DNA of 60,000 nt from Mobula hypostoma (lineage: Eukaryota). A model generated the notes under the pieces. The model saw only the letters and a list, made by a program, of their open reading frames with translations, did no database searches and was not told where the DNA came from. The stretch lies in the NCBI RefSeq assembly GCF_963921235.1, contig NC_086107.1, positions 94,924,001-94,984,000 on the forward strand. Reading direction: 5' to 3'. Positions 3,631 through 40,142 of this stretch are shown one piece after another (within the stretch, counting starts at the first letter, position 1; each line of letters opens with the position of its first letter). A program made the translations under genes and the position numbers.

Positions 3631-4423
3631 ACAGTCACCAAGAAACTGCAGGATTTTTGTACAATGAAATGTGATGCCAGGGAGGAAATCTGCTGTCCTT
3701 ACGTGATCTAGGTACCTATGTGACTTCCGTCCTAATGTCCTTCAATTGCCCCTCAGTTCTGGGGCCACTAGGCAGTCAGCGCCAGCATTGTTGCCAATGT
3801 CCCAGAAACAAAATCCAAATTCACACCAATTTCTGCTTACATCAACAGTATGAACTATCAAGAGGGGTAAACCCACTCCATTTTGTTGCTTTAGAGGAGC
3901 CTTCATACCAGTAGAGGAAATTAGGAGATCTCATTGAGAAATCTGCTCAAAAGTCATATGTGGGGGTTGGGGGCGGGGGGTCATTGCTTAACTATCATTC
4001 ATTCTTTGGGGCACTCCTCTGTTTTCGTGGATGTTTGCGAAGAAAAAGAATTTCAGGATGTATATTGTATACATTTCTCTGATATTATATGTACCTATTG
4101 AAGTCATTCATGTTAACCCAAAGCCCGTAATAGGAATAATTATTAAAGAGTCTATGGAACAAAGAACTCTATTGTAAGCCAGTTTATTACAATGGAGTTA
4201 TTATATAATTATGTTAATCTATGTAAAATATTAACATCCAATACAAGGCACAGTGACTCAGTATTTCCCTGTCTGAGAGAAGGATTAACACAGGGGTTTT
4301 TGTTTACACAACACCAATCACTCACCCCCCACCCACCATTCCCTCCTCCCCACCCCAATCCCTTTCCTCTTCTCCAAGGAGAAGTGTCAACTTTGAAGGC
4401 ACAAAAAAAAACTCATAAACATA

Positions 4424-4995
4424 AGAGATGCTGGAAATCCAGAGGAACACACACAAAATGCTGGAGGAACTCAGCAGGTCAAGCAGCATTTATGGAGGGG
4501 AATAAACAGTCGACATTTCGGGCCAAGACCCTTCATCAGGACTGGACAGGAAGGGGGAAGACGCCAGAATTAAAAGGTGGGGGAAGGGGAGAAATACAAG
4601 CTGGCAGATGGTAGGCGAGACCAGGTGAGGGGGAAGGTGGGTGGGAGAGTGGGGATGAAGAAGCTGGGAGGTGATAGGTGGAAGAGTTAAAGGGCTGAAG
4701 AAGGAATCTGATAGGAGAGGAGAGTGGACCATGGGAGAAATGGAACGAGGAGGGGACTCAGAGGGAAACGATGAGTAGGTGAGAAGAGAAAGGGTGAAGG
4801 GAGGACCAGAAAAGACAAGAGAGGCTGGAGAAATGACTGGAAGTTCAATAAATCAGTGTTCATGCCATCAGGTTGGAGGCTACCCAGACAGAATATGAAG
4901 TGCTGCTCCAACCGAAGCGTGGCTTCATCGTGGCAATAGAGGAAATCATGGACTGACATGTCGGAATGGGAATAGGAAGTGGAATTAAAATGGGG
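4424..4995 (-). mobile_element. Penelope-like 3' fragment (relatives at ~16073-16350, 18375-18662, 22544-22990, 35627-36215, 41460-41950, 42601-43180, 52878-52990)
   Basis: MSVH..LYCHDEATLRLEQHFIFCLGSLQPDGMN (GIY-YIG C-terminus) followed by the shared tail gatgctgcctgacctgctgagttcctccagcattttgtgtg. Confidence 0.85.
4507..4544 (-). ncRNA. Minimal type-I hammerhead ribozyme motif (Penelope-associated)
   Basis: cagtc CTGATGA a gggtcttggccc GAAA tgtc gactg: stem I cagtc/gactg, conserved core, stem II hairpin, GUC cleavage triplet. Confidence 0.72.
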
Positions 4996-6736
4996 AGGTG
5001 GGGGGGGTCACTGGGAAAGTTCATCTTTTGTGGGGGATACAGCAAAGCTGTTCCGTCTTCCACAAGAAACCCATCTGTGGAGTTTACTGATCAGACTGGC
5101 CCACACAATCCCCAGCTGGAAGGTCAGCTAACACTGCTCTCACATTGGTTTTGTGTCCTTAGCTCTTGGTATGTCAACGAGGAGACCCCCACCCGCCCGA
5201 CCAATAGTTATGGGTGGAGACGTCACGCACTTCCTTATCCATCTCTCAGAAGCCTGATGTATATTATCAGAAAGATTTTAAAGATAAAGATTTATTTGTC
5301 ACATACACATCGAAACACAAGACTGAGGGGCATTGCTTGTGTCAAAAAAAATTGCACTGGGGCAGCCCAAAAGTGTCACCAACATGTCGTGTTATAGCGC
5401 ACTAAACCGAACTCACGTGACTTTGGAACGTGGGAGGAAACCGGAGCACCCGGAGGAAGACTTTGCGGTCGGGGGAGAACGCACAAACTCCTTCCGGATG
5501 ACTGGTGGGAGTCAACCGCGACTGGCGGTCGCTGGCGTTGTAATCTCTGAAGTGTATTGATAATGGATGGGGTCACCAGTCTTGTAAAGTCATTGTGCAG
5601 AAGGAGGCAATGGAAAACCAGTTCTGTAGAAAATAATTTGCCAAGAACAATCATGTTAAGACCATGATCGCCCATGTCACAGGACACAGCATAGTGATGA
5701 TGATAAATTTATTATAACCCGGATTTCCCTGAAGTCAGTCAAGGCCTCACTGCCAAATACTGGATTGATAAGGTGTTTAGAGGGAGTGTGTGGGTGGGGG
5801 TAGCTATTAGAGGAGGCTTGAGGTGGGGAGGACCCCAGTTCACTTTGCTTCTGTTCTCCTACATCACGAGCCCAAATGCTTCAGTGGCTGCCCCTGGTTT
5901 AATCATGTCCTCAGCAACAATGGCAGTGAGGGTCAGAGAACAGGGAAACAGGCCCTTCGGCCATCAAATCCATGCATGCTGATTACCAACCTCCCATTGA
6001 TCATGTGGATAGCCAGAGGTTTGACCCAGGGCTGAAGTGGCTAACGTGAGGAAGCAAAGCTTGGAAGCAGGTACAAGGGGGACGTCACAGTTAAGTTTTT
6101 CCACACAGAGAGTGGTGGGTGCCTGGAATGTACTGCCAGCAAAGGTGGTAGAGGTGGATACGATAGGGTCTTTTAAGAGACTCTTAGATAGGTATATGGA
6201 GCTTAGAAAAATAGAGGGTTATGCGGTATTGCAAGTCTAGGCAGTTTCTAGAGTTGTTTACATGGCACAACATCGTGGGCTGAAGGGCCTGTAATGTGCT
6301 GTAGATTTCTATGTTCCATGATTTACACTTATCTCATTTTATTCTCTCCACTTTCTCCTCAACTCCTAACTCCACAGATTTTACCCTCCCCCCTGCCCGA
6401 GATGCACTTTACTGTGCTCAATGAATTGGCCAATTAACCAGAGCAACTGAGAAAACCCCATGTACGTCCACACAGAACAAGCAATCTCCACATACACGGG
6501 AGGTCAAGATCCAACCCAGGTCTCTGGAGCAGGGGCAGCAGCTCTACTCACTGTGTCACTGTTCCTCCCTAATGGAAACTATTTCAGAAATGCCTGATCT
6601 CATTCCCTTCAAACAATGGGCTACCCAACACTCCAATCGGCAATGCAACTCAAGGGGCAGCTGTCCAGCAGAACAGGTTGTGAAGCATCCTTTGTTTTAG
6701 GGACTCGACATCAACCCAGGAACAACAGTACGCATG

Positions 6737-6772
6737 GTGTGTGTGTGTGTGTGTGTGGGGGGGGGGGGGGGT
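6737..6772. repeat. (GT)n followed by a poly-G run
   Basis: Direct reading. Confidence 0.95.
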
Positions 6773-7756
6773 GGTCACAATTACCCATGCCAGGCAGGGA
6801 TCCCAGTCTAAAGCACGTTCTGATGAAACATAAAACACACGAAATTCTGCAGATGCTGGAAATCCAGAGCAGCACACTCAAAATGGTGGAGGAACTCAGC
6901 AGGTCAGGCAGCATCTATGGAATCCTGAGGATGGGTCTCGGCTCGAAACGTCGACTGTTTATTCATTTCCATAGATGCCGAGTCCTGTTAAAATATCTGG
7001 GAATGGCTCAGAATGGGCTAATCCTGCTTGAATAATCTATCTGGGATGGATGACAGTCACACAGCATGTACCGGCCCACTAAGTACGCGCCAACCATCAA
7101 GAATGCGTCTACACTGATCTCCCCACATTCCCTTGATCTGCCCTCCCCACCCATCCACAAATACTGGGGGCAAACTACAGAAACCAATTAACCCACCGAA
7201 GACCCTCAGGTCTTAGGAATGTAGCAGGAAACTGGAGCTCCCCGGGGAAACACACACACTCACAGGGAGAACGTCGGACTCCACATAGACAGCACTCAAG
7301 GTCGGGACTGTACTGGATCACAGGATTGGCGAGGAAGGGGTACCACTGTGTCCTGGTCTTGATCAGTAGCAGCATAGGTGAGGCAAGGCTATTCTGATGC
7401 TTATCCACAAGTCGTTATTATTGTAAGGATTTATTAACTATGCTGACAAAAAAAAGGAATCTCAGGATTGTGTATGGTGACATGTATGTAGTTTGATAAT
7501 AACTTTACTTTTGAACTTTGAAGTGCTTCAGGGTTGAATTAGCCATGAAGAAAAATTTAAGTCCTCACCCGGGTCAGGTCCTGGCTGGTTGCAGTTGGGT
7601 CAGGTTTTAAGTGTCGGCAAATAAGACTAGCATAGGTGCACATCGTGGTCAGAGTCTGCAAAGCTCTGCAAGTCCACTAGTGAGGTGGAAGCCCAACTGG
7701 AAGTCTGAGAGTCCAAGTCCACCAGAGGATGGAGGCCCAAGATGACGATCTGGCTT

Positions 7757-7930
7757 GGGGTTAGAGGGGTTAGAGGGGTGAGAGAGGGGTGGGAGAGGGG
7801 GAGAGGGGGAGAGGGGGAGAGGGGAGAGGGGGAGAGGGGGAGAGGGGGAGAGGGGGAGAGGGGGAGAGGGGGAGAGGGGGAGAGGGGGAGAGGGGGAGAG
7901 GGGGAGAGGGGGAGAGGGGGAGAGAGAGAG
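7757..7930 (+). repeat. Polypurine (GGGGAGA)n microsatellite
   Basis: Direct reading of the sequence. Confidence 0.97.
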
Positions 7931-10296
7931 AACGAGAACGCAGCGGGGATTGTTTTGTCATTGTTGTTTTGTTGCTTGCTGTGTTCTGTTTTGTTTTGCC
8001 GAGCATGGTGGGCATGTTACGTTGGTACCTGAACGTGTGGCGACACTCGCGGGCTGCCCACAGCACACCCTCAGGTGTGTTGGTTGTTAATGCAAACACC
8101 ACACTTCACAGTCTGTTTCGATGTACATGTAATAAACAAATTTGTATTAGACTGGACAAGTTGGGCCAAAATGTCTGCTTCCTATCGGTATTTGACTAAG
8201 TGACGTCTACCAGAGTACGATTGTATCCTATGAGGAAGTAATCCTCTTCCAGAGTAACAGGAGTCCACACTCCCAAGACACTCTGTCCAGTTAAATCAGA
8301 CCATACCCAATGCTCCCTTTACTCAATGCTCACAGAGATTACTAACCCACAATGTTCCCTCTTCCCACTCACAATTCATCCTCATCTTCAACACCAAATC
8401 TCAGTGTATTTTTCCCTCCTATTTGAATGATTATCCAATTATCCATACGACTCTTCTCCCCCTCCCGCATCCAACTACAGCCTATTTTTAGAAAAAAAAG
8501 GCACCCAGCGCCCGCCTCATTTCACGTGAGCACCCAGGATCAGCCGGAGTAGATTGGGAAGGGATGAGTGCAGTCACAGGCCAAGGCCCGGATACCATAG
8601 AAATCCTGGAGGTCTCATGCTGCTGTGGTTTCTGGTACAATCTGTATAGGAGGTTCCTCCTTCCATTGGCTGATAGACTGGGTGGTCACAGGATATGCAG
8701 GGAAATCCTGTCTGAATCACAGGCTCTTGGCTGAGAATTAAAATCCAGCATCAAAGAAGTTCTGGCAATTTGAATTCTATCTGCAGGGAATTATTCCATT
8801 AAAGCGTGGATTTAGCTGAAGCCCTCTGGTAGACACGAGGTTTGGGTTGCACTTACACCCCATTCAACTCTTTCTCAAACAGGTATTGACATAGAAATAA
8901 ATCTACGAGAAAACTCCAGCCCCTAATTCACACCTCACCCAGGATCTTTTGATTTTATTTTCCTATACTATTAAGTCATTTAGCAGGAATCAGAAATGTA
9001 ACCTTCAAACACACTAAGAATATTCACAAAGGAAAGATAGGTGTGGTACCAGGCTTAATCTTGGTTTACTCCAGATGTAGCCAATGAAGGACATTGTGAA
9101 CCGCAGTCACACCGTACAGAGTGTGGTAGCAAGTTCCCCATCCACTAGCTCTCTGGTTGGGTTAAACATTGGTTATGGACCCAAACCCTCCCCCCCCACC
9201 CTCCCCCAACCCATTTCAAGGGTGTGGTGTACATCTTCCGGCCCAGGGAGGAGATTGTGAGCAGAAGAGGCAGAGGAAAGAAGATCAGCTCCCCAGAAAT
9301 TCGTACACATTAGATAGGTGTTAAGAACAAATAAGGTTACAGGCCGTCCCAGGGTTACAATTGACTGATGTGGGACACGGGCCCGAACCGGGAGCACCGA
9401 GAGGACCTCCCTCACTCCGACCCAGCACCCCTTCTTTGTCACCCATCACAACCGTCTCTGGCACCCTCTCCTGTCTGCCCGATTGCGACGCCTGACGTGG
9501 GAACGGTTTCTGAGGTACGCACGGTTCTCAGGGACTGGGCCCAGCCGTAACCCGGGGGATTGCCTGTGTTGGCGAGGTGGACTGTTGGGTCCATCCGGTG
9601 AGGTTTGGAGAATCAGTAGTGAAACGCACCCAGCCTCTCCCATCAGTGGCATGCCCCCACCTGCACAACCCCCCACCTCAATATCTGCTCAACGGGAGCT
9701 CTGTAAAAAGGACATCACCATCGACCTATTTATCTACCTCACCTGCTGGAGTGGTGCTGTCATTACAACAGTTTCACAGGTCTCCCTCTCCACCTCCACC
9801 CCTCTCCAAAGTTTCTTGATGGAACGAGAGTCTATTAACTTGCCTCTTGCCACGCTGGAGGACATCAGAAGACCCAATTCAGGCAGAGTGCTCTCAAACG
9901 TGACCCGAATGTTCCTTAACAGGTGCTTCCCCCGACGACATGGAGAATGGGGAAAATTGTTCAATCGGCGATTGAATCAGTGGAAAGTAACGTTCAGCTT
10001 TGGATGATAATCACCCACAGAGCCCAAAGGATGGAAGTGCTCGCACTGGGGAAAATCCGAGGGTTTGCTGGTTCCTGATGATTCTCCGAGAGAAATACTT
10101 AGAAGGACACACCCCAGAAATCCCAAAGACTTTTTCAGGAACTCCCACCCCTTCCCTCACCCTCCCCCCACCCCCCAAATCTTGTCTCGTGATTCTTCAA
10201 ATACTCTCTGGTACCTTTTCTTCTCCACGTTACAGGACTTTTCCAGTGGATGTAAAAAAAAAACATTCAGGAAAAGTTCCAGTGGAATTCCAAGTT

Positions 10297-12399: not shown

Positions 12400-12550
12400 A
12401 CTTACTAACCCTAACTGTACGACTTTGGAATGCGGGAAGAAAGCAGAGCACCCAGAGGAAACCCACGTGGTCACAGGGAGAACGCACAAATTCCTTACAG
12501 ACAGTGGCAGGAATTGTACCCTGATCACTGATGCTGTAAAGCATTACACC
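12400..12550 (-). mobile_element. V-SINE/HE1-like SINE (other copies ~5400-5540, 7170-7350, 11390-11600, 15130-15290, 23260-23370, 26740-27280, 28640-28790, 30210-30425)
   Basis: Shared core gtgggtttcctc(c/t)gggtgctc(c/t)g(g/c)tttcctcccacattccaaa characteristic of V-SINEs. Confidence 0.75.
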
Positions 12551-21900: not shown

Positions 21901-23598
21901 GGGCCCTGCCACAAGAAAGCAGCATCCATCATCAAGTTCACCCCACCATCCTGTCATCTTGGTGTTGCCACTGGGCAGGAGGTATAGGAGCCTCGGGGCA
22001 CCATACTACCAAGTTCAGGAACAGTTATTACCCAACAACCATCAGGTTCCTGAACCAGCGTGGATAACTTCACTCACCTAAACACTGAACTGATCCACAA
22101 CCTACAGGCTCATCTTCAAGGACTCTCACAACTCGTTCTCAGCATTATTTACTTTTTACTTGCACAATATGTCTTCTTTTGCACGTTGGTTGTTTTGTCA
22201 GTCTTTTTCATAGATTTTATAGTATTTACCTGTTTCCTGTAAATGTTTGCAAGAAGATGCATCTCGAGGTAGCATATAGCAATTTTGATAATAAATTGCC
22301 TTTGAACTCTATCTCTGTCCTCTAGTTTTACCTCCTTCTGATATTGGAGGAAGGTTTCCTACAATCTATCTTATCTATACCTCTCATAATTTTGCATACT
22401 CAATCACATTCCCTCCGAACACCCTTCATTCCGGGAGAAACAGAGCCAGCCTCTCCTCATAACTCAAATGTGCTATCCAGGGCAACACCCTAGCGAATCT
22501 CCTCACAGCCCTTCCCAGCTCCATCACATACTTTAAGCCCAAATACAAGAGATTCTGCAGATGCTGGAAATCCAGAGCACCACACCCACAAAATGCTGGG
22601 AGAACTCAGCAGGTCAGGCAGCACCCATGGAGGGAAACAAACAGCTGGCGTTTGGGGACGAAATATTTCATCAAACTGCTCACCTGGCCTCAGCTATCGC
22701 CTGCCAGCTCATATTTATTCCCCTCACCCTCACCACCTTTTTCTGGCTTCTGCCTCCTTCTTTTCCAGTCCTGATGCAGGTGGGGCTGGAGTACAAACTG
22801 GTAGGCGAAACTAGGTGAGCGGATGGGGGAAGGGTGAAGTAAGATGTTGGGAGATGATTGGTAGAAGGGGTGAAGGAGGAATCTGACAGGAGAGAAGAGC
22901 AGACCATGAAGACAGGTAGGAAGGAGGGGTGTCAGAGGGAGGTGATGAGCAGTTGAGGAGAAGGGGAGTAAGGGTAACTAGAATGGGGAACGTAATGAGA
23001 GACTCTCCCAGTATGTCCACTCTACCTAAGCCTTTCAATCTTACTCTCACTCAGAAGTGCCCTCTCCCTCTCCTGCTGTCACACGGGAGGACGGATAGAG
23101 GGTGACAGGTTGGAACTTGCAGGATGTAGTCCAATCCGAGTTGGCCACACGGCTGCCAGGACCTCGTTCCCCCCGTCCCCCCACAGAGCAGAGGAGTGGG
23201 TAGGTCAGCTTAGGCAGCAGGGATCGGATGACCCTGGGGACCTTGTGAGAGGAACTTTGGGGACGGCATGGTATTACAGTGTCAGTGACCCAGGTTCAAT
23301 TCTGCTGCTGTCCGTAAGGTGTCCGTATGCTCTCCCCGTGACTGTGTGGGTCTCCTCTGGGTGCTCCTCCTCATATCAAGACAGCAAATGCTGTCACCTT
23401 CACTGCCTCAGTCCCAAGCTCTGCAATTCTCTTCAAATCCTCTTCTTCACTTCTCTTCATTAAACCTACTCATGTGACGAAGATTTGGTCAGCTACCTTT
23501 GCAGCTCTTCCACCGCAACATTCCTGGGAAGTTCCTTGGAATCTATTATAAAGCACTTCCTACATGGCTGCTGGTGTTACTTTCACTATGGGATGAGC

Positions 23599-25436: not shown

Positions 25437-25600
25437 CGTCTTATCATCGTCCTCAAAGACTTCACGTGCCTCCTCGTAATTGCACACTTCTTCACAGCAT
25501 TCGCGTTCAATATTTCCTGGAGTTAAGAGCTCAAAATCCCAGCTGTTGTAGAGCAGCTTCCGGTTTAAGAAGGTAGTCGCTTCACGTTCATCCATAAACA
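25437..25600 (-). CDS. PRRG2: PRRG2-like coding exon 2: propeptide + Gla domain
   Basis: ttgcttttag|TG TTT ATG...; (V)FMDEREATTFLNRKLLYNSWDFELLTPGNIERECCEEVCNYEEAREVFEDDDKT matches the Gla signature (ERECxEExCxxEEAREVFE); donor ACG|gtaggg, phase 0. Confidence 0.96.
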
Positions 25601-26526: not shown

Positions 26527-26635
26527 CTTTCTGTCCGGCATCTCCTTGATGGGTCAGTGCACGTGCATCGGTACAGTGAGTATTGGCCAGCACCCACAAC
26601 AGAAACACGCCGTGCAGGAAGCAGTGGGTGACCAT
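26527..26635 (-). CDS. PRRG2: PRRG2-like coding exon 1 (signal peptide); exon begins at 26671 with 36 nt of 5'UTR
   Basis: Acceptor ttttgttttcgtttctag|; Kozak gccaacATGG at 26635; encodes MVTHCFLHGVFLLWVLANTHCTDARALTHQGDAGQK+G; donor |gtaggt, phase 1, joins the Gla exon to give Val. Confidence 0.88.
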
Positions 26636-26924
26636 GTTGGCTTGACGTGGTACCAAACAGCACAACGCAACCTAGAAACGAAAACAAAATTCAGTCATCC
26701 CCTGTTGGATGCAACTCTTCTCTGTCACTTTTTTAAAGTTGCATTTAGAGACACAGCACAGTAAAAGGCCCTTCCAGCCTAACAAGCCTGTACTGGCCAA
26801 TTACACCATGTGACTGATTAACCCACATCTTTGGAATGTGGGAGGAAACCAGAGCACCCAGAGGAACACACATAAAAGTTGCTGGTGAACGCAGCAGGCC
26901 AGGCAGCATCTCTAGGAAGAGGTG

Positions 26925-26962
26925 CAGTCGACGTTTCAGGCCGAGACCCTTCGTCAGGACTA
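26925..26962 (-). ncRNA. Minimal hammerhead motif (sense in PRRG2 pre-mRNA)
   Basis: tagtc CTGACGA a gggtctcggcct GAAA cgtc gactg; intact core, palindromic ACGT stem III. Confidence 0.75.
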
Positions 26963-27032
26963 ACTGAAGGAAGAGTGAGTAAGGGATTTGAAAGTCGGAG
27001 GAATCAAATCCCTTACTCACTCTTCCTTCAGT

Positions 27033-27070
27033 TAGTCCTGACGAAGGGTCTCGGCCTGAAACGTCGACTG
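27033..27070 (+). ncRNA. Minimal hammerhead motif (opposite arm)
   Basis: tagtc CTGACGA a gggtctcggcct GAAA cgtc gactg, identical to the minus-strand copy. Confidence 0.75.
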
Positions 27071-27416
27071 TACCTCTTCCTAGAGATGCTGCCTGGCCTG
27101 CTGCGTTCACCAGCAACTTTGATGTGTGTTGCTTGAATTTCCAGCATCTGCGGAATTCCTGTTGTGTGCACCCAGAGGAAACCCATGCAGTCATGGGGAG
27201 AATGTGCAAACTCCTTACAGACAGCAGAATTGAATCCGGATCAACTATTACGGTAATAATTTTACCCTAACCACGCCGCACCAAAGTTCCTCTCTCAAAG
27301 TCTGCAAGGTCAACCGATCCCTCCTACCCAAGCTGACCAATCCACACTTCTGTTCTGTGTGTGTTGGGGGGCAAGCTCCTGGCAGCTGTGTAGCCAATTC
27401 TGATTGGATAAATTGT

Positions 27417-28092
27417 GAGAGAAGATGGCGGCGCGACACAGCTCGCAGCGGCCACTGCGGTGGTGTTGTCTGTTATTTGTCAAGTAGGGGGCCGTGCACA
27501 ATCCTGATTTGATGGAGACGGATGTGAGAGCACGGAGGAACATCTGGTGAAACTTCTGAAATGCCTGCTTCGCTGCTGCTGCCACTGTGTGGTCCAGAAT
27601 CTCCGGAGGGGAAGGCCCCGAGTCCTCGGCTTTGCTTGTTGCTCGGCGGCTGGGGCAGGGTCGAAGCGCTCAGCAGAGGATGGTGCTCGGAGAGGCTGTG
27701 TCGGAGGGGCTGGTCAGAGGCTTGAAGTTTTCGGACGGACTCAGAGTCTGCTGCCATCGGGTGCTTCCAACGGTACTGCATCGGCAAGTTCGCAGCGCTT
27801 GGAGGTTCATGGCGGGGAGTGTTTCTCCCTTCTGCCGCCTGCGTGAGATGATGAGTCTATCGGGACCTTGAGACTTTTTTTTTACCGTGCCCATGGTCTG
27901 CTCTTTATCAAATTATGGTATTGCTTTGCACTGTGTAACTATATGTTATAATTATGTGGTTTTGTCAGTTTTAGTCTTGGTTTGTCCTGTGTTTTCTTGT
28001 GATATCATTCTGGAGGAATGTTGTATCATTTTTTAATTCATGCATATCTAAATGACAATCAATGAGGACTGAGTGTCCTCATAATCTAAATT
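27417..28092 (+). mobile_element. Non-coding LINE-derived element with CpG-rich head (AAGATGGCGGCG) and (taatc)-type tail; 3' piece also at ~21315-21400 minus
   Basis: Tail gaggactg(a/c)gtgtcctcataatctaaat shared with the reverse complement of 21315-21400; no RT coding capacity seen. Confidence 0.6.
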
Positions 28093-28875
28093 AAATCCTG
28101 TAAGTTCCAACCTGTCACCTTCTATCCATCCTCCCATGTGACAGCGGGAGAGGGGAGAGCACTTCTCAGCGAACGCAAGATTGAAAGGCCTAGATAGAGT
28201 GGATGCACAGAAGATGATTCCAACAGGGAAAGAATTTAGGACCAGAGGGCACAGCTTCAGAACACAAGGACGTCCCTTTAGAACAGAGATGAGGAGGAGT
28301 TTCTTCAGTCAGCGGGTGGCAAATCTGAGGAATTCACCGCCACAGACAGTGGCGTGACGCCAAGTGACGTGGAGGCTACGTCACTTGAAATATTTAAAGT
28401 GCAAGTTGATGGGTTCTTCATTAGTAAAGGTAAAGGTTATGAGATGTAGGCAGCATAATGGGATTAAGAGGGAAAAATAAATCGGCCATGATTGAACGGT
28501 GTAGCAGACTTGATGAGCCAAGTGGCCTCTAATTCTGCTCCTGTGTCTTATGGTCTGATGTAACAGAGAGGAATAACACAATCTCATTTCTAGCCCTGAA
28601 GAAGGATCTTGGCCCAAAATGTCGACCGTTTTTATATTTTATCTAGAGATACAGCATGGCAACAGGCCCTGCTGGCCCAGTAAGTCTGTGCCCAATTGCA
28701 CCCACTGACCAATTAACCTACTTACCTGTACGTTGCTGCAAAGTGGGAGGAAACCGGAGCAGTTGGAGGAAACCCTCAGGGAGAATGTAGGGAGTCACTT
28801 CCTTCTGGGATAATGCTCTGTGCTTCCATTATTGCCTTCGATGGATGCTGCTCGACTTTCTGAGTTCCTCTATTG

Positions 28876-29763: not shown

Positions 29764-30478
29764 CTCTATTGTGTCTTATGCCTCTGTTACCCATTTCTAG
29801 GGCTTCCTGGTCAAGCTCAGAGACCCGCGACACTTTACAGCTCGTGGTGATATTGGTGTAATTATGGTTATAATAGAACCGGGACAGGAAGATCACAGAC
29901 ACAGCACCAGATGATAGGACTAGGACTGCCAGACTGGGTAACAGCTTCTTCCCTCAGGCAGAGAATAATGAATACCCTGCCACCACCGAGATCTCAGCAT
30001 CAGGACAGCGCACTAATGCAGTTTGAATTATATTTTATTAACTTACTTGTGGTAATATTTTGTTTTATGCGCTGTGTGTGATACATGTTGTGTATGATAT
30101 ATGCTTTATAGGTGCTCCATAATCCGGATGAACCTTGCTTCGTTTAGTTCCACACATGTACAGTCAGATGAATAAACTTGAACTTTACATCAAGTTATTT
30201 TTTTAATTTATTTAGAGATGTGTCACAGTAACAGGTCCTTCAGCCCAATGATCCTGTGCTGCCCAATTGCACCCATGTGACCAACTAACCCCGACATCTT
30301 TGGACTGCAGGAGGAAACCCACACGGTCACGGGGAGAAGGTACAAACTCCTTACTGGCAGTGGTGGGAATTGAACCCAAGCCGCTGGCGTTGTACAGCAT
30401 TATGCTAACCACTACGCTACCGCGCCAAGGGATGTCAAAATAGACAAGAGAAAATCTGCAGAAGCTGGAAATCCAAGC

Positions 30479-39081: not shown

Positions 39082-40142
39082 CAGCGGATTCCAGTTAACT
39101 GGGCCATCGGTTAATCAGAGCAGACGCTTACTTAGACAACTTTTAAAGAACAAAAACTAACTGAGGAAATAGCAGTGATTCCCTTCACTTATTTGGGACA
39201 CTATGCTGCTTATCTGGGACAGGAGACTGTTGCCGAACAATTTCAAACTAGTGTCAGCTGTGTGTACTGTGTGGCTGTTAGATACTACACTGTGCTTTGA
39301 GTGAACAACTTTTAAATAGCAACACACATAAAAGTTGCTAGTGAACGCAGCAGGCCAGGCAGCATCTCTAGGAAGAGGTACAGTCGACATTTCAGGCCAA
39401 GACCCTTCGTCAGGACTTCGGTTAGTCCTCTTTCAGTTAGTCGACTGTACCTCTTCCTAGAGATGCTGCCTGGCCTGCTGTGTTCGCCAGCAACTTTTAT
39501 GTGTGTTGCTTGAAATTCCAGCATCTGCAGATTTCCTCGTGTTTGAACTTTTAAATAGTGTCAATTGCATGTTTAAAAAAATACTAGTTGTTGATAGTTG
39601 GCGAGAAATAAGTGGTTAGACAATTCAGAACTGTTTTGCTCACTGCAGTTTCAAGCAAACAGGCTTGGAGATGCCAGAAATGGCTGGGAGTCACAAAAGA
39701 AACAATTTCATGACCTCAGCAAGTTAGGAACTACAAAGAATTTGAAAGTATTGGCAAACATCATGAATGTTACAATGAAAATTTAGATTTTGAGGACACA
39801 ATCGTCAAAAGCATTGTATGAAGACATTCCATTATCTGCACTAGGTCTGCACTGATTTTGTTCCTTTACAGTCAAAGTAACATGGCAGTGTACACTGGGT
39901 GAATTCCTCTGTTGATAACTTTTAGGAACTAATACACAGTTTTATAGTGCTGTAGAAGTATTGATAGTGTTCTAATTTGTTCTGTGTTTCATTTAAGTAC
40001 TTAATCTGTTACTGAGTTAAACAGTAGGTTTTTTTTTATACCTTTTTAACTATTTCCATGAAATTTCAGGTAATTGGGGCAGCCGCTTAATTGGGTCAAA
40101 ACATACCAGTCCTGATGTGTCCCAATTAACCAGAATCCACTG
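39082..40142. mobile_element. Non-autonomous Tc1/pogo (Tigger-like) element inserted into CR1 ORF1
   Basis: TA duplicated at 39080-39081 and 40143-40144; 22-bp TIRs cagcggattccagttaactggg / cccaattaaccagaatccactg (4 mismatches); CR1 sequence continues on both sides. Confidence 0.85.
39320..39545. mobile_element. Second palindromic Penelope-derived insert of the same subfamily (hammerhead at ~39381-39417 minus; core deleted in the other arm)
   Basis: 13-bp TSD aacttttaaatag (39307-39319, 39546-39558); arms nearly identical to 26867-27167. Confidence 0.88.

Follow-up and report, generated by a model that had tools for sequence, protein, structure and literature searches.

A 301-bp palindromic insert in the first PRRG2 intron of the ray Mobula hypostoma very probably arose when an endonuclease-bearing Penelope-like element (PLE) retrotransposed once into a SINE copy, and it would have been dead on arrival. 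As described for insertions of PLEs (EN+), it has an inverted 5'-truncated copy, a tail at one end only, and a target-site duplication (TSD) around the whole unit.

Structure of the insert and its target site

The insert occupies positions 26867-27167 of the window (the whole stretch of DNA that was analysed, 60,000 nt), with near-perfect inverted arms within a 13-bp TSD. A repeat search placed the inverted repeat at 26862-26991 and 27004-27133, with a length of 130 nt, 98% complementarity and a gap of 12 nt. It should be mentioned that the left arm overlaps the TSD of the insert by its outermost 5 nt, so that the true arms are ~125 nt long, with 2 mismatches. The palindromic insert of ~300 bp with a 13-bp TSD that was reported in the preliminary description is confirmed by this delimitation, the direct repeat being exact over 13 nt. 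The parts of the insert and its target are as follows.

26729..27340, no strand assigned: target SINE-like repeat, split by the insert at 26867-27167 (both flanks match other copies in the window)
26854..26866, no strand assigned: left TSD copy, 13 bp (exact direct repeat and two empty-site paralogs)
26867..27001, minus strand: inverted tail-less copy of the PLE 3' end (BLAST to the natural full copy, 95.7% identity; inverted repeat)
27002..27003, no strand assigned: 2-nt filler at the head-to-head junction (gap between both BLAST arms)
27004..27133, plus strand: direct copy of the PLE 3' end, beginning ~161 nt short of the terminus and running to the tail (98-99% identity with 12 single-arm copies)
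27134..27167, plus strand: 34-nt tail of the right arm only (absent from the inverted arm)
27168..27180, no strand assigned: right TSD copy, 13 bp (exact direct repeat and two empty-site paralogs)

The left (inverted) arm spans ~34 to 171 nt from the PLE 3' terminus and extends ~10 nt farther inward than the tailed arm. Two SINE-like copies elsewhere in the window, at 12423-12527 and 5421-5493, align by BLAST to both flanks of the insert, and the flank ends overlap by exactly 13 nt. Considering that this overlap is seen in two uninterrupted paralogs, as for an empty site, the direct repeat is a true TSD. Uninterrupted copies of the target repeat were not found by pattern search, but BLAST of both flanks did find them. 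In addition to these two, more copies of the SINE-like repeat lie at 23203-23364, 28629-28761 and 30198-30360 of the window. The repeat may resemble V-SINE/HE1-type elements.

The window also contains a second fold-back PLE insert of 226 bp at 39320-39545, with a 13-nt duplication at 39307-39319 and 39546-39558. Its tail-less arm is located at ~39318-39417 and its tailed arm at ~39440-39545, and its inner junction is different from that of the insert at 26867-27167 and more complex.

The parent Penelope-like element

The genome (3.48 Gb, 200 contigs) was searched with the 301-bp insert, which gave 1132 first-look candidates, 40 of which were scored. Among these best 40 of 1132, at least 16 other loci match the whole insert, both arms included, at 85-96% identity, and many loci match the right arm and tail alone at 97-99%. 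All of the 12 right-arm matches that were fetched are single arms. These single-arm copies (98-99% identity) share a 3' UTR upstream of the arm in 12/12 cases, and most of them have ORF fragments with a GIY-YIG-like end.

One full-length PLE copy (C62:42083000-42091000, 3927-7838) has an uninterrupted frame of 1041 codons with matches to reverse transcriptase (RT) and GIY-YIG domains. Pfam support for the frame is weak: both RVT_1 scores (27.8 and 26.3 bits) lie just below the cut-off of 29.6, and those for GIY-YIG (23.0 and 22.0 bits) are at or just below the cut-off of 22.6. The protein carries the motifs ADKGG (DKG), YIDD and GVIY...YIGET. PLEs are recognised by an RT with a GIY-YIG domain C-terminal to it, and the insert is thus the outermost 3' end of such an element, once in direct and once in inverted orientation. 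The right arm together with its 34-nt tail corresponds to the last ~165 nt of this RT/GIY-YIG-encoding element. DKG is named as diagnostic of PLEs in an excerpt of PMC8557442.

In the same full-length copy, the frame is immediately preceded by 423 nt of the 3' end in inverted orientation and lacking the tail, it is followed by a tailed 3' end, and a 14-bp duplication flanks the entire structure. This one full-length copy examined showed no direct (tandem) terminal repeat or pLTR. In the preliminary description, the insert had been regarded as either a truncated Penelope insertion or a retrozyme-like unit. The former part of this claim stands, as arm and tail are a PLE 3' end, and the latter does not, since the boundaries vary from copy to copy, as elaborated below.

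An older and more decayed PLE family is present in this genome as well, with copies ~78-84% alike (4258 first-look candidates) and the same layout of the 3' end. The CpG sites of its hammerhead region have mostly decayed, and in its helix II the pairs that are G.U and U.G in the young family are G-C and U-A. Between the two families, the changes in helices I and II are one-sided and wobble-compatible only; they therefore provide no compensatory covariation for the ribozyme fold.

A minimal hammerhead motif on each strand

The 32-nt hammerhead core is found with 0 mismatches on each strand of the insert, at 26927-26958 on the minus strand and at 27037-27068 on the plus strand, and was not found in 100 shuffles. 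The hammerhead is present on both strands because the PLE 3' end, with the motif ~100 nt from the terminus, stands there twice. A third copy of the core, with 2 mismatches, lies at 39383-39414 in the second fold-back insert. The elements of the two motifs are listed below.

26925..26962, minus strand: minimal hammerhead motif (core match with 0 mismatches; helices I and II in the predicted fold; predicted cut after 26930, C17)
27033..27070, plus strand: minimal hammerhead motif (core match, hand reading and predicted fold; C17 at 27065)
27033-37/27066-70, plus strand: helix I, 5 pairs including one G.U
27038-44, plus strand: CUGACGA box (hand reading; identical box on the minus-strand motif)
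27045, plus strand: unpaired A (hand reading; a feature named in an excerpt of PMC4209133)
27046-49/27054-57, plus strand: helix II, 4 pairs (G.U, G-C, G-C, U.G) with a 4-nt closing loop
27058-61, plus strand: GAAA box (hand reading; identical on the minus-strand motif)
27061-64, plus strand: palindromic ACGU without loop (hand reading)
27063-65, plus strand: GUC cleavable site (hand reading; C17 = 27065)

CUGANGA and GAAA boxes with a cleavable NUH site are thus present in both motifs. One minimal hammerhead per strand had been claimed earlier, and this is borne out by the boxes, helices I and II, and the GUC at 27065 on the plus strand and 26930 on the minus strand. Helix III and loop 3 are absent from the motif, and the ACGU palindrome would allow a dimer. 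The G10.1-C11.1 pair is not kept, the U at 27057 giving a G.U pair instead. Position 11.1 is a C in 26 of the first 100 listed genomic matches to the descriptor (about a quarter), and also in the older PLE family.

No match to the Rfam hammerhead families was obtained at the gathering score in the whole 60,000-nt window. At E<=10, a 601-nt stretch gave 15 matches, none of them to a hammerhead (13 to microRNA precursors and 2 to PrrB/RsmZ, all below gathering), and a 76-nt stretch gave no hammerhead and 1 irrelevant match. Sub-threshold Rfam matches to microRNA precursors and PrrB/RsmZ are attracted by any long hairpin. The isolated 53-nt arm folds at -12.2 kcal/mol, like shuffles (z = 0.01 and 0.03), and its best fold pairs the core nucleotides among themselves. 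The ribozyme-competent helices I and II alone amount to -7.6 kcal/mol. For the dimer, the trans ACGU duplex is predicted at only -3.1 kcal/mol, compared to -10.3 kcal/mol for the competing GUCGAC palindrome. At the level of the descriptor, the hammerhead motif of the insert is present and intact, which makes it a candidate for self-cleavage. PLE hammerheads are described in the literature as cleaving poorly, or only with protein (excerpt of PMC4209133; PMC11167929).

Genome-wide population of fold-back copies

Minimal hammerhead motifs are very abundant in the ray genome. The descriptor CTGANGA-N(11-15)-GAAACGTC has 44,629 + 44,857 matches genome-wide (~89,500), compared to 73 + 73 (146) for the reversed control. 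This count is approximately ten times the figures of 4,000-9,000 minimal hammerheads quoted in 2014 for coelacanth and Xenopus. A literature search for PLE hammerheads in cartilaginous fishes (Penelope and elasmobranch) found nothing specific.

Among the first 100 listed places of the descriptor, there are 8 minus-plus pairs within 1 kb, 0 plus-minus pairs and 2 same-strand pairs. In these 8 minus-plus pairs and the 2 pairs of the window, one arm is at the terminus and the other ends 24-35 nt inside it (once 83), the inner ends lie 102-854 nt from the terminus, and the duplications measure 12-16 bp. One TSD encloses both arms in 10/10 loci checked by eye. When two 15-nt core words within 300 nt were searched for, the head-to-head arrangement was found at at least 3,690 loci versus 70 for tail-to-tail, with 0 in the controls.

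The first 50 head-to-head loci in genome order, which are on one contig (C1), were taken as a sample. Exactly one tailed arm is present in 48 of the 50, and two tailed arms in none (0/50). In these 48 loci the tail-less arm ends 15-93 nt inside the terminus, the distance being 22-45 nt in 38 of them. An exact TSD of at least 10 bp was found in 36/50, one of 8-9 bp in 8/50 and a shorter one in 6/50, with a median of 13. The core-to-core distance ranges from 2 to ~290 nt over the 50 loci, and the inner junctions are all different. Arm lengths of fold-back copies range from ~30 nt to >800 nt. The 16 whole-query loci were chosen by similarity to the insert and are a sample biased toward the query; each has its own flanks and duplication, the inner junctions differ, and the outer end of the inverted arm differs in 7/16.

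The differing inner junctions and the single tail in 48/50 loci indicate that fold-back copies arise independently, and the retrozyme-like reading is rejected on this basis. Similarly, the proposal of a distinct mobile family with fixed boundaries is contradicted by the variable junctions and arm lengths of the genome-wide copies. Fold-back copies of this kind, each formed independently, are very numerous in the genome, and the insert in the window is typical of them.

Position at PRRG2 and the predicted hairpin

PRRG2 is encoded on the minus strand, with its start codon at 26635-26633 in the following exon.

26527..26671, minus strand: PRRG2 start-codon exon (protein match; acceptor and donor predicted from the sequence)

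The 36 residues of this exon are the first 36 of the 211-aa transmembrane gamma-carboxyglutamic acid protein 2 of Mobula hypostoma. The next (Gla-domain) exon at 25437-25600 encodes 54 aa that are 100% identical to the same 211-aa protein, and a protein search with it gave 216 hits among 221 candidates, nearly all of them named PRRG2. The acceptor AG is predicted at 26673-26672, 180 nt from the insert, in agreement with the earlier placement of the insert ~200 nt upstream of the start-codon exon.

A hairpin of ~130 bp is predicted at -281.4 kcal/mol (z = -31.7) in one sense and -272.0 kcal/mol in the other. It had been suggested that this hairpin silences cleavage. The suggestion is reasonable as far as the predicted energies go, since the hairpin (-281 kcal/mol) dwarfs the ribozyme fold (-7.6 kcal/mol for helices I and II). 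In any transcript, the modelled ~130-bp hairpin should block the ribozyme fold. No host function is indicated for the insert. Long perfect intronic hairpins, such as this one at 180 nt from a coding exon, are potential sources of dsRNA.

Approximately 200 nt beyond the insert there is a GC-rich stretch, 27380-27470, with a CCAAT box beside an inverted CCAAT. It may act as a promoter, either of PRRG2 or of a divergent gene on the plus strand. A short ATG-initiated frame starts at 27426.

Formation of the insert and alternative explanations

We propose that the PLE endonuclease would have nicked both target strands ~13 bp apart, and that both 3'-OH ends would have primed reverse transcription on PLE RNA. 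The cDNA of the tailed arm would have begun at the terminal RT start site and that of the tail-less arm at an internal start site, and the two short cDNAs could then have been joined at their 3' ends via a template jump or microhomology. This proposal draws on biochemical work with a purified lizard PLE protein, which cleaves and extends both target strands (PMC11167929). The same work found two neighbouring internal start sites of reverse transcription, between which the tail sequence lies, and showed the hammerhead to cleave only with protein and to be dispensable for insertion. Considering the two-strand extension and the two start sites observed in vitro, the simplest reading of the insert is that of two joined target-primed cDNAs. 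It is noted that no strand difference in the use of start sites was seen in vitro (PMC11167929), so the rule of one tail per insert is left unexplained by that work.

The 48 one-tailed loci of the sample allow this dual priming to be compared with a copy-back or self-priming route, in which a single target-primed cDNA would have folded back and been copied to within ~34 nt of its own beginning, with no priming on RNA by the second target strand. Self-priming has been proposed for the palindromic junctions of PLEs (excerpt of PMC3846280), and the single tail per insert (48/50) would be its natural outcome. The near-symmetric arms point in the same direction. The inner ends of paired arms are correlated (Spearman 0.74, p = 1.7e-9, 48 loci) and lie within 15 nt of each other in 35/48, compared to a mean of 20.1 and a maximum of 31 in 5000 permutations. 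The arms also usually share subfamily variants. At 7 polymorphic sites, defined on the same data, they are discordant in 17/152 comparisons versus 97/2853 elsewhere, i.e., three times more often, and this is well below the 25-60% that independent template draws would give. Simple independent dual priming does not predict the correlated inner ends or the shared subfamily variants. Against copy-back, the tailed arm should always be at least as long as the tail-less arm, whereas it is longer in 17, equal in 6 and shorter in 25 of the 48 loci, although the small differences may be alignment noise. The tail-less arm exceeds the tailed arm by ~10 nt in the window insert and by ~200 and 690 nt in two other loci. 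The two positions at which the arms of the window insert differ are both polymorphic in the family, a hint of two templates. The single tail, the correlated ends and the fact that either arm can be the longer one are not jointly covered by simple dual priming or by simple copy-back. The single tail, the correlated ends and the shared variants keep copy-back or self-priming, as well as the use of one short RNA for both strands, under active consideration; we regard copy-back as a possible but doubtful origin. Dual priming is more likely than copy-back, though not established.

A fold-back or MITE-type DNA transposon, which would have fixed terminal inverted repeats up to both ends and a short TSD of constant length, was considered and rejected: the ends of the insert are asymmetric, because the tail is on one arm only, and the arms are retroelement 3' ends of variable length. 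A retrozyme-like or SINE-like non-autonomous palindromic family, replicated as a whole and moved in trans by PLEs, could account for the loci, at least 16 in number, that match the whole 301-bp query at 85-96%, and retrozymes are reported as derived from PLE terminal repeats (excerpt of bioRxiv 10.64898/2026.07.22.740005). However, even the 16 loci selected by this query have varying junctions and varying outer ends of the inverted arm, and the unbiased samples have no common junction and a core spacing of 2 to ~290 nt. Moreover, the arms are inverted, whereas animal retrozymes are tandem direct units, and the full-length PLE has the same inverted arm. Such a family is thus extremely unlikely. 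Assembly errors can make palindromes, and PLE copies are dense in this genome, so two adjacent PLE insertions, a later inverted duplication or an assembly artefact also have to be weighed. One TSD brackets both arms, here and in the 10/10 loci checked by eye, the head-to-head arrangement outnumbers tail-to-tail by 3,690 to 70, and the regular one-tail asymmetry is unexpected from chance neighbours or artefacts, which leaves these origins with a nearly negligible probability. The host might, lastly, have co-opted the hairpin, for instance as a precursor resembling that of a microRNA or as an edited dsRNA modulating PRRG2 splicing, given the very high stability predicted for the hairpin in either sense (-281 and -272 kcal/mol) and its position ~180 nt from the predicted acceptor site. 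This is very unlikely, considering that the Rfam microRNA matches are far below gathering scores and that thousands of equivalent hairpins exist in the genome.

Returning to the insert as a product of PLE retrotransposition, we tentatively suggest that the regularities of the fold-back copies could be the in vivo footprint of concerted two-stranded integration by a PLE particle, an idea to which we assign a rather low probability. Both nicked strands would use one short RNA, or two paired RNAs, as template, with priming at the terminal RT start site for one strand and at the internal site (preferentially ~32 nt from the end) for the other, and the cDNAs would be joined end to end. If true, this would link the two start sites and two-strand extension seen in vitro with the long-unexplained inverted repeats and tail of PLEs, and 5' truncation would be set by the 5' end of the RNA template rather than by the RT falling off. 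The locus itself matters little, being one among thousands of inert retroelement ends. The ~89,500 motifs of the ray genome make it a large natural data set for PLE integration, and a quantitative picture of its thousands of fold-back copies could discriminate between models of this process.

Comparison with known systems

In the model of LINE-1 twin priming, the RNA is also primed by the second target strand, which yields an inverted segment on the 5' side within one TSD. Twin priming inverts a neighbouring upstream segment, whereas the insert duplicates the same 3' segment, with a preferred internal start. Animal non-LTR retrozymes, as described in the excerpt of bioRxiv 10.64898/2026.07.22.740005, resemble the insert in being short and non-coding, with type-I hammerheads related to PLE terminal repeats. 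However, retrozymes consist of a fixed unit repeated directly in tandem and can yield circular RNAs, whereas the insert is a single inverted pair with variable boundaries; neither tandem direct repeats nor a fixed unit is found in it.

The hammerhead motifs of the insert are similar to the metazoan PLE hammerheads of PMC4209133 (excerpt) in their boxes, the absence of helix III and loop 3, the ACGU palindrome, the 5-bp helix I and the terminal location. They differ from these in helix II, which has 4 bp here compared to 6-8 bp in Schistosoma and Drosophila, and in the G.U at 10.1-11.1. The corresponding G10.1-C11.1 pair is called highly conserved in PLE minimal hammerheads in the same excerpt. 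Opposite-strand pairs of minimal hammerheads ~100-700 bp apart have been noted before, and most dispersed minimal motifs were attributed to truncated PLEs (Cervera and De la Pena 2014, excerpt of PMC4209133). PLE hammerheads are typically located in pLTRs (Craig et al., excerpt of PMC8557442).

The Poseidon element PAc of Anolis carolinensis (Frangieh et al. 2024, PMC11167929) provides two start sites that delimit a tail, together with two-strand cleavage and extension, as in the formation proposed for the insert. That work is biochemical and concerns a lizard element, and its main text reports no joined fold-back product, one-tail rule or correlated arm lengths.

The closest likeness is to PLE units themselves. 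Typical PLEs are truncated at the 5' end, next to which stands an inverted copy that is itself 5'-truncated, and carry a tail of 30-40 bp at one end (excerpt of PMC8557442), and Arkhipova et al. 2013 described a 31-bp tail on one inverted pLTR with a TSD around the whole unit, together with a discussion of self-priming as a source of head-to-head palindromes in PLEs (excerpt of PMC3846280). The fold-back layout is thus a known PLE hallmark and the insert is of an already known kind, so its novelty is low. TSDs are longer in the ray, with a median of 13 bp compared to 8-10 bp for rotifer copies (excerpts of PMC3846280 and PMC8557442). Different from canonical PLE units, the direct copy has been cut down to ~165 nt, so that only two terminal pieces remain. 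As in the excerpts on Pen2a_Av of Adineta vaga and on Penelope/Poseidon (PMC3846280, PMC8557442), the parent encodes an ORF with RT and C-terminal GIY-YIG and its copies are strongly 5'-truncated. Also as in these units, the inverted copy is on the 5' side, the tail is on one repeat only (34 nt here, 31 bp in Pen2a_Av), a single TSD encloses the whole unit and the hammerhead motif lies in the terminal repeat.
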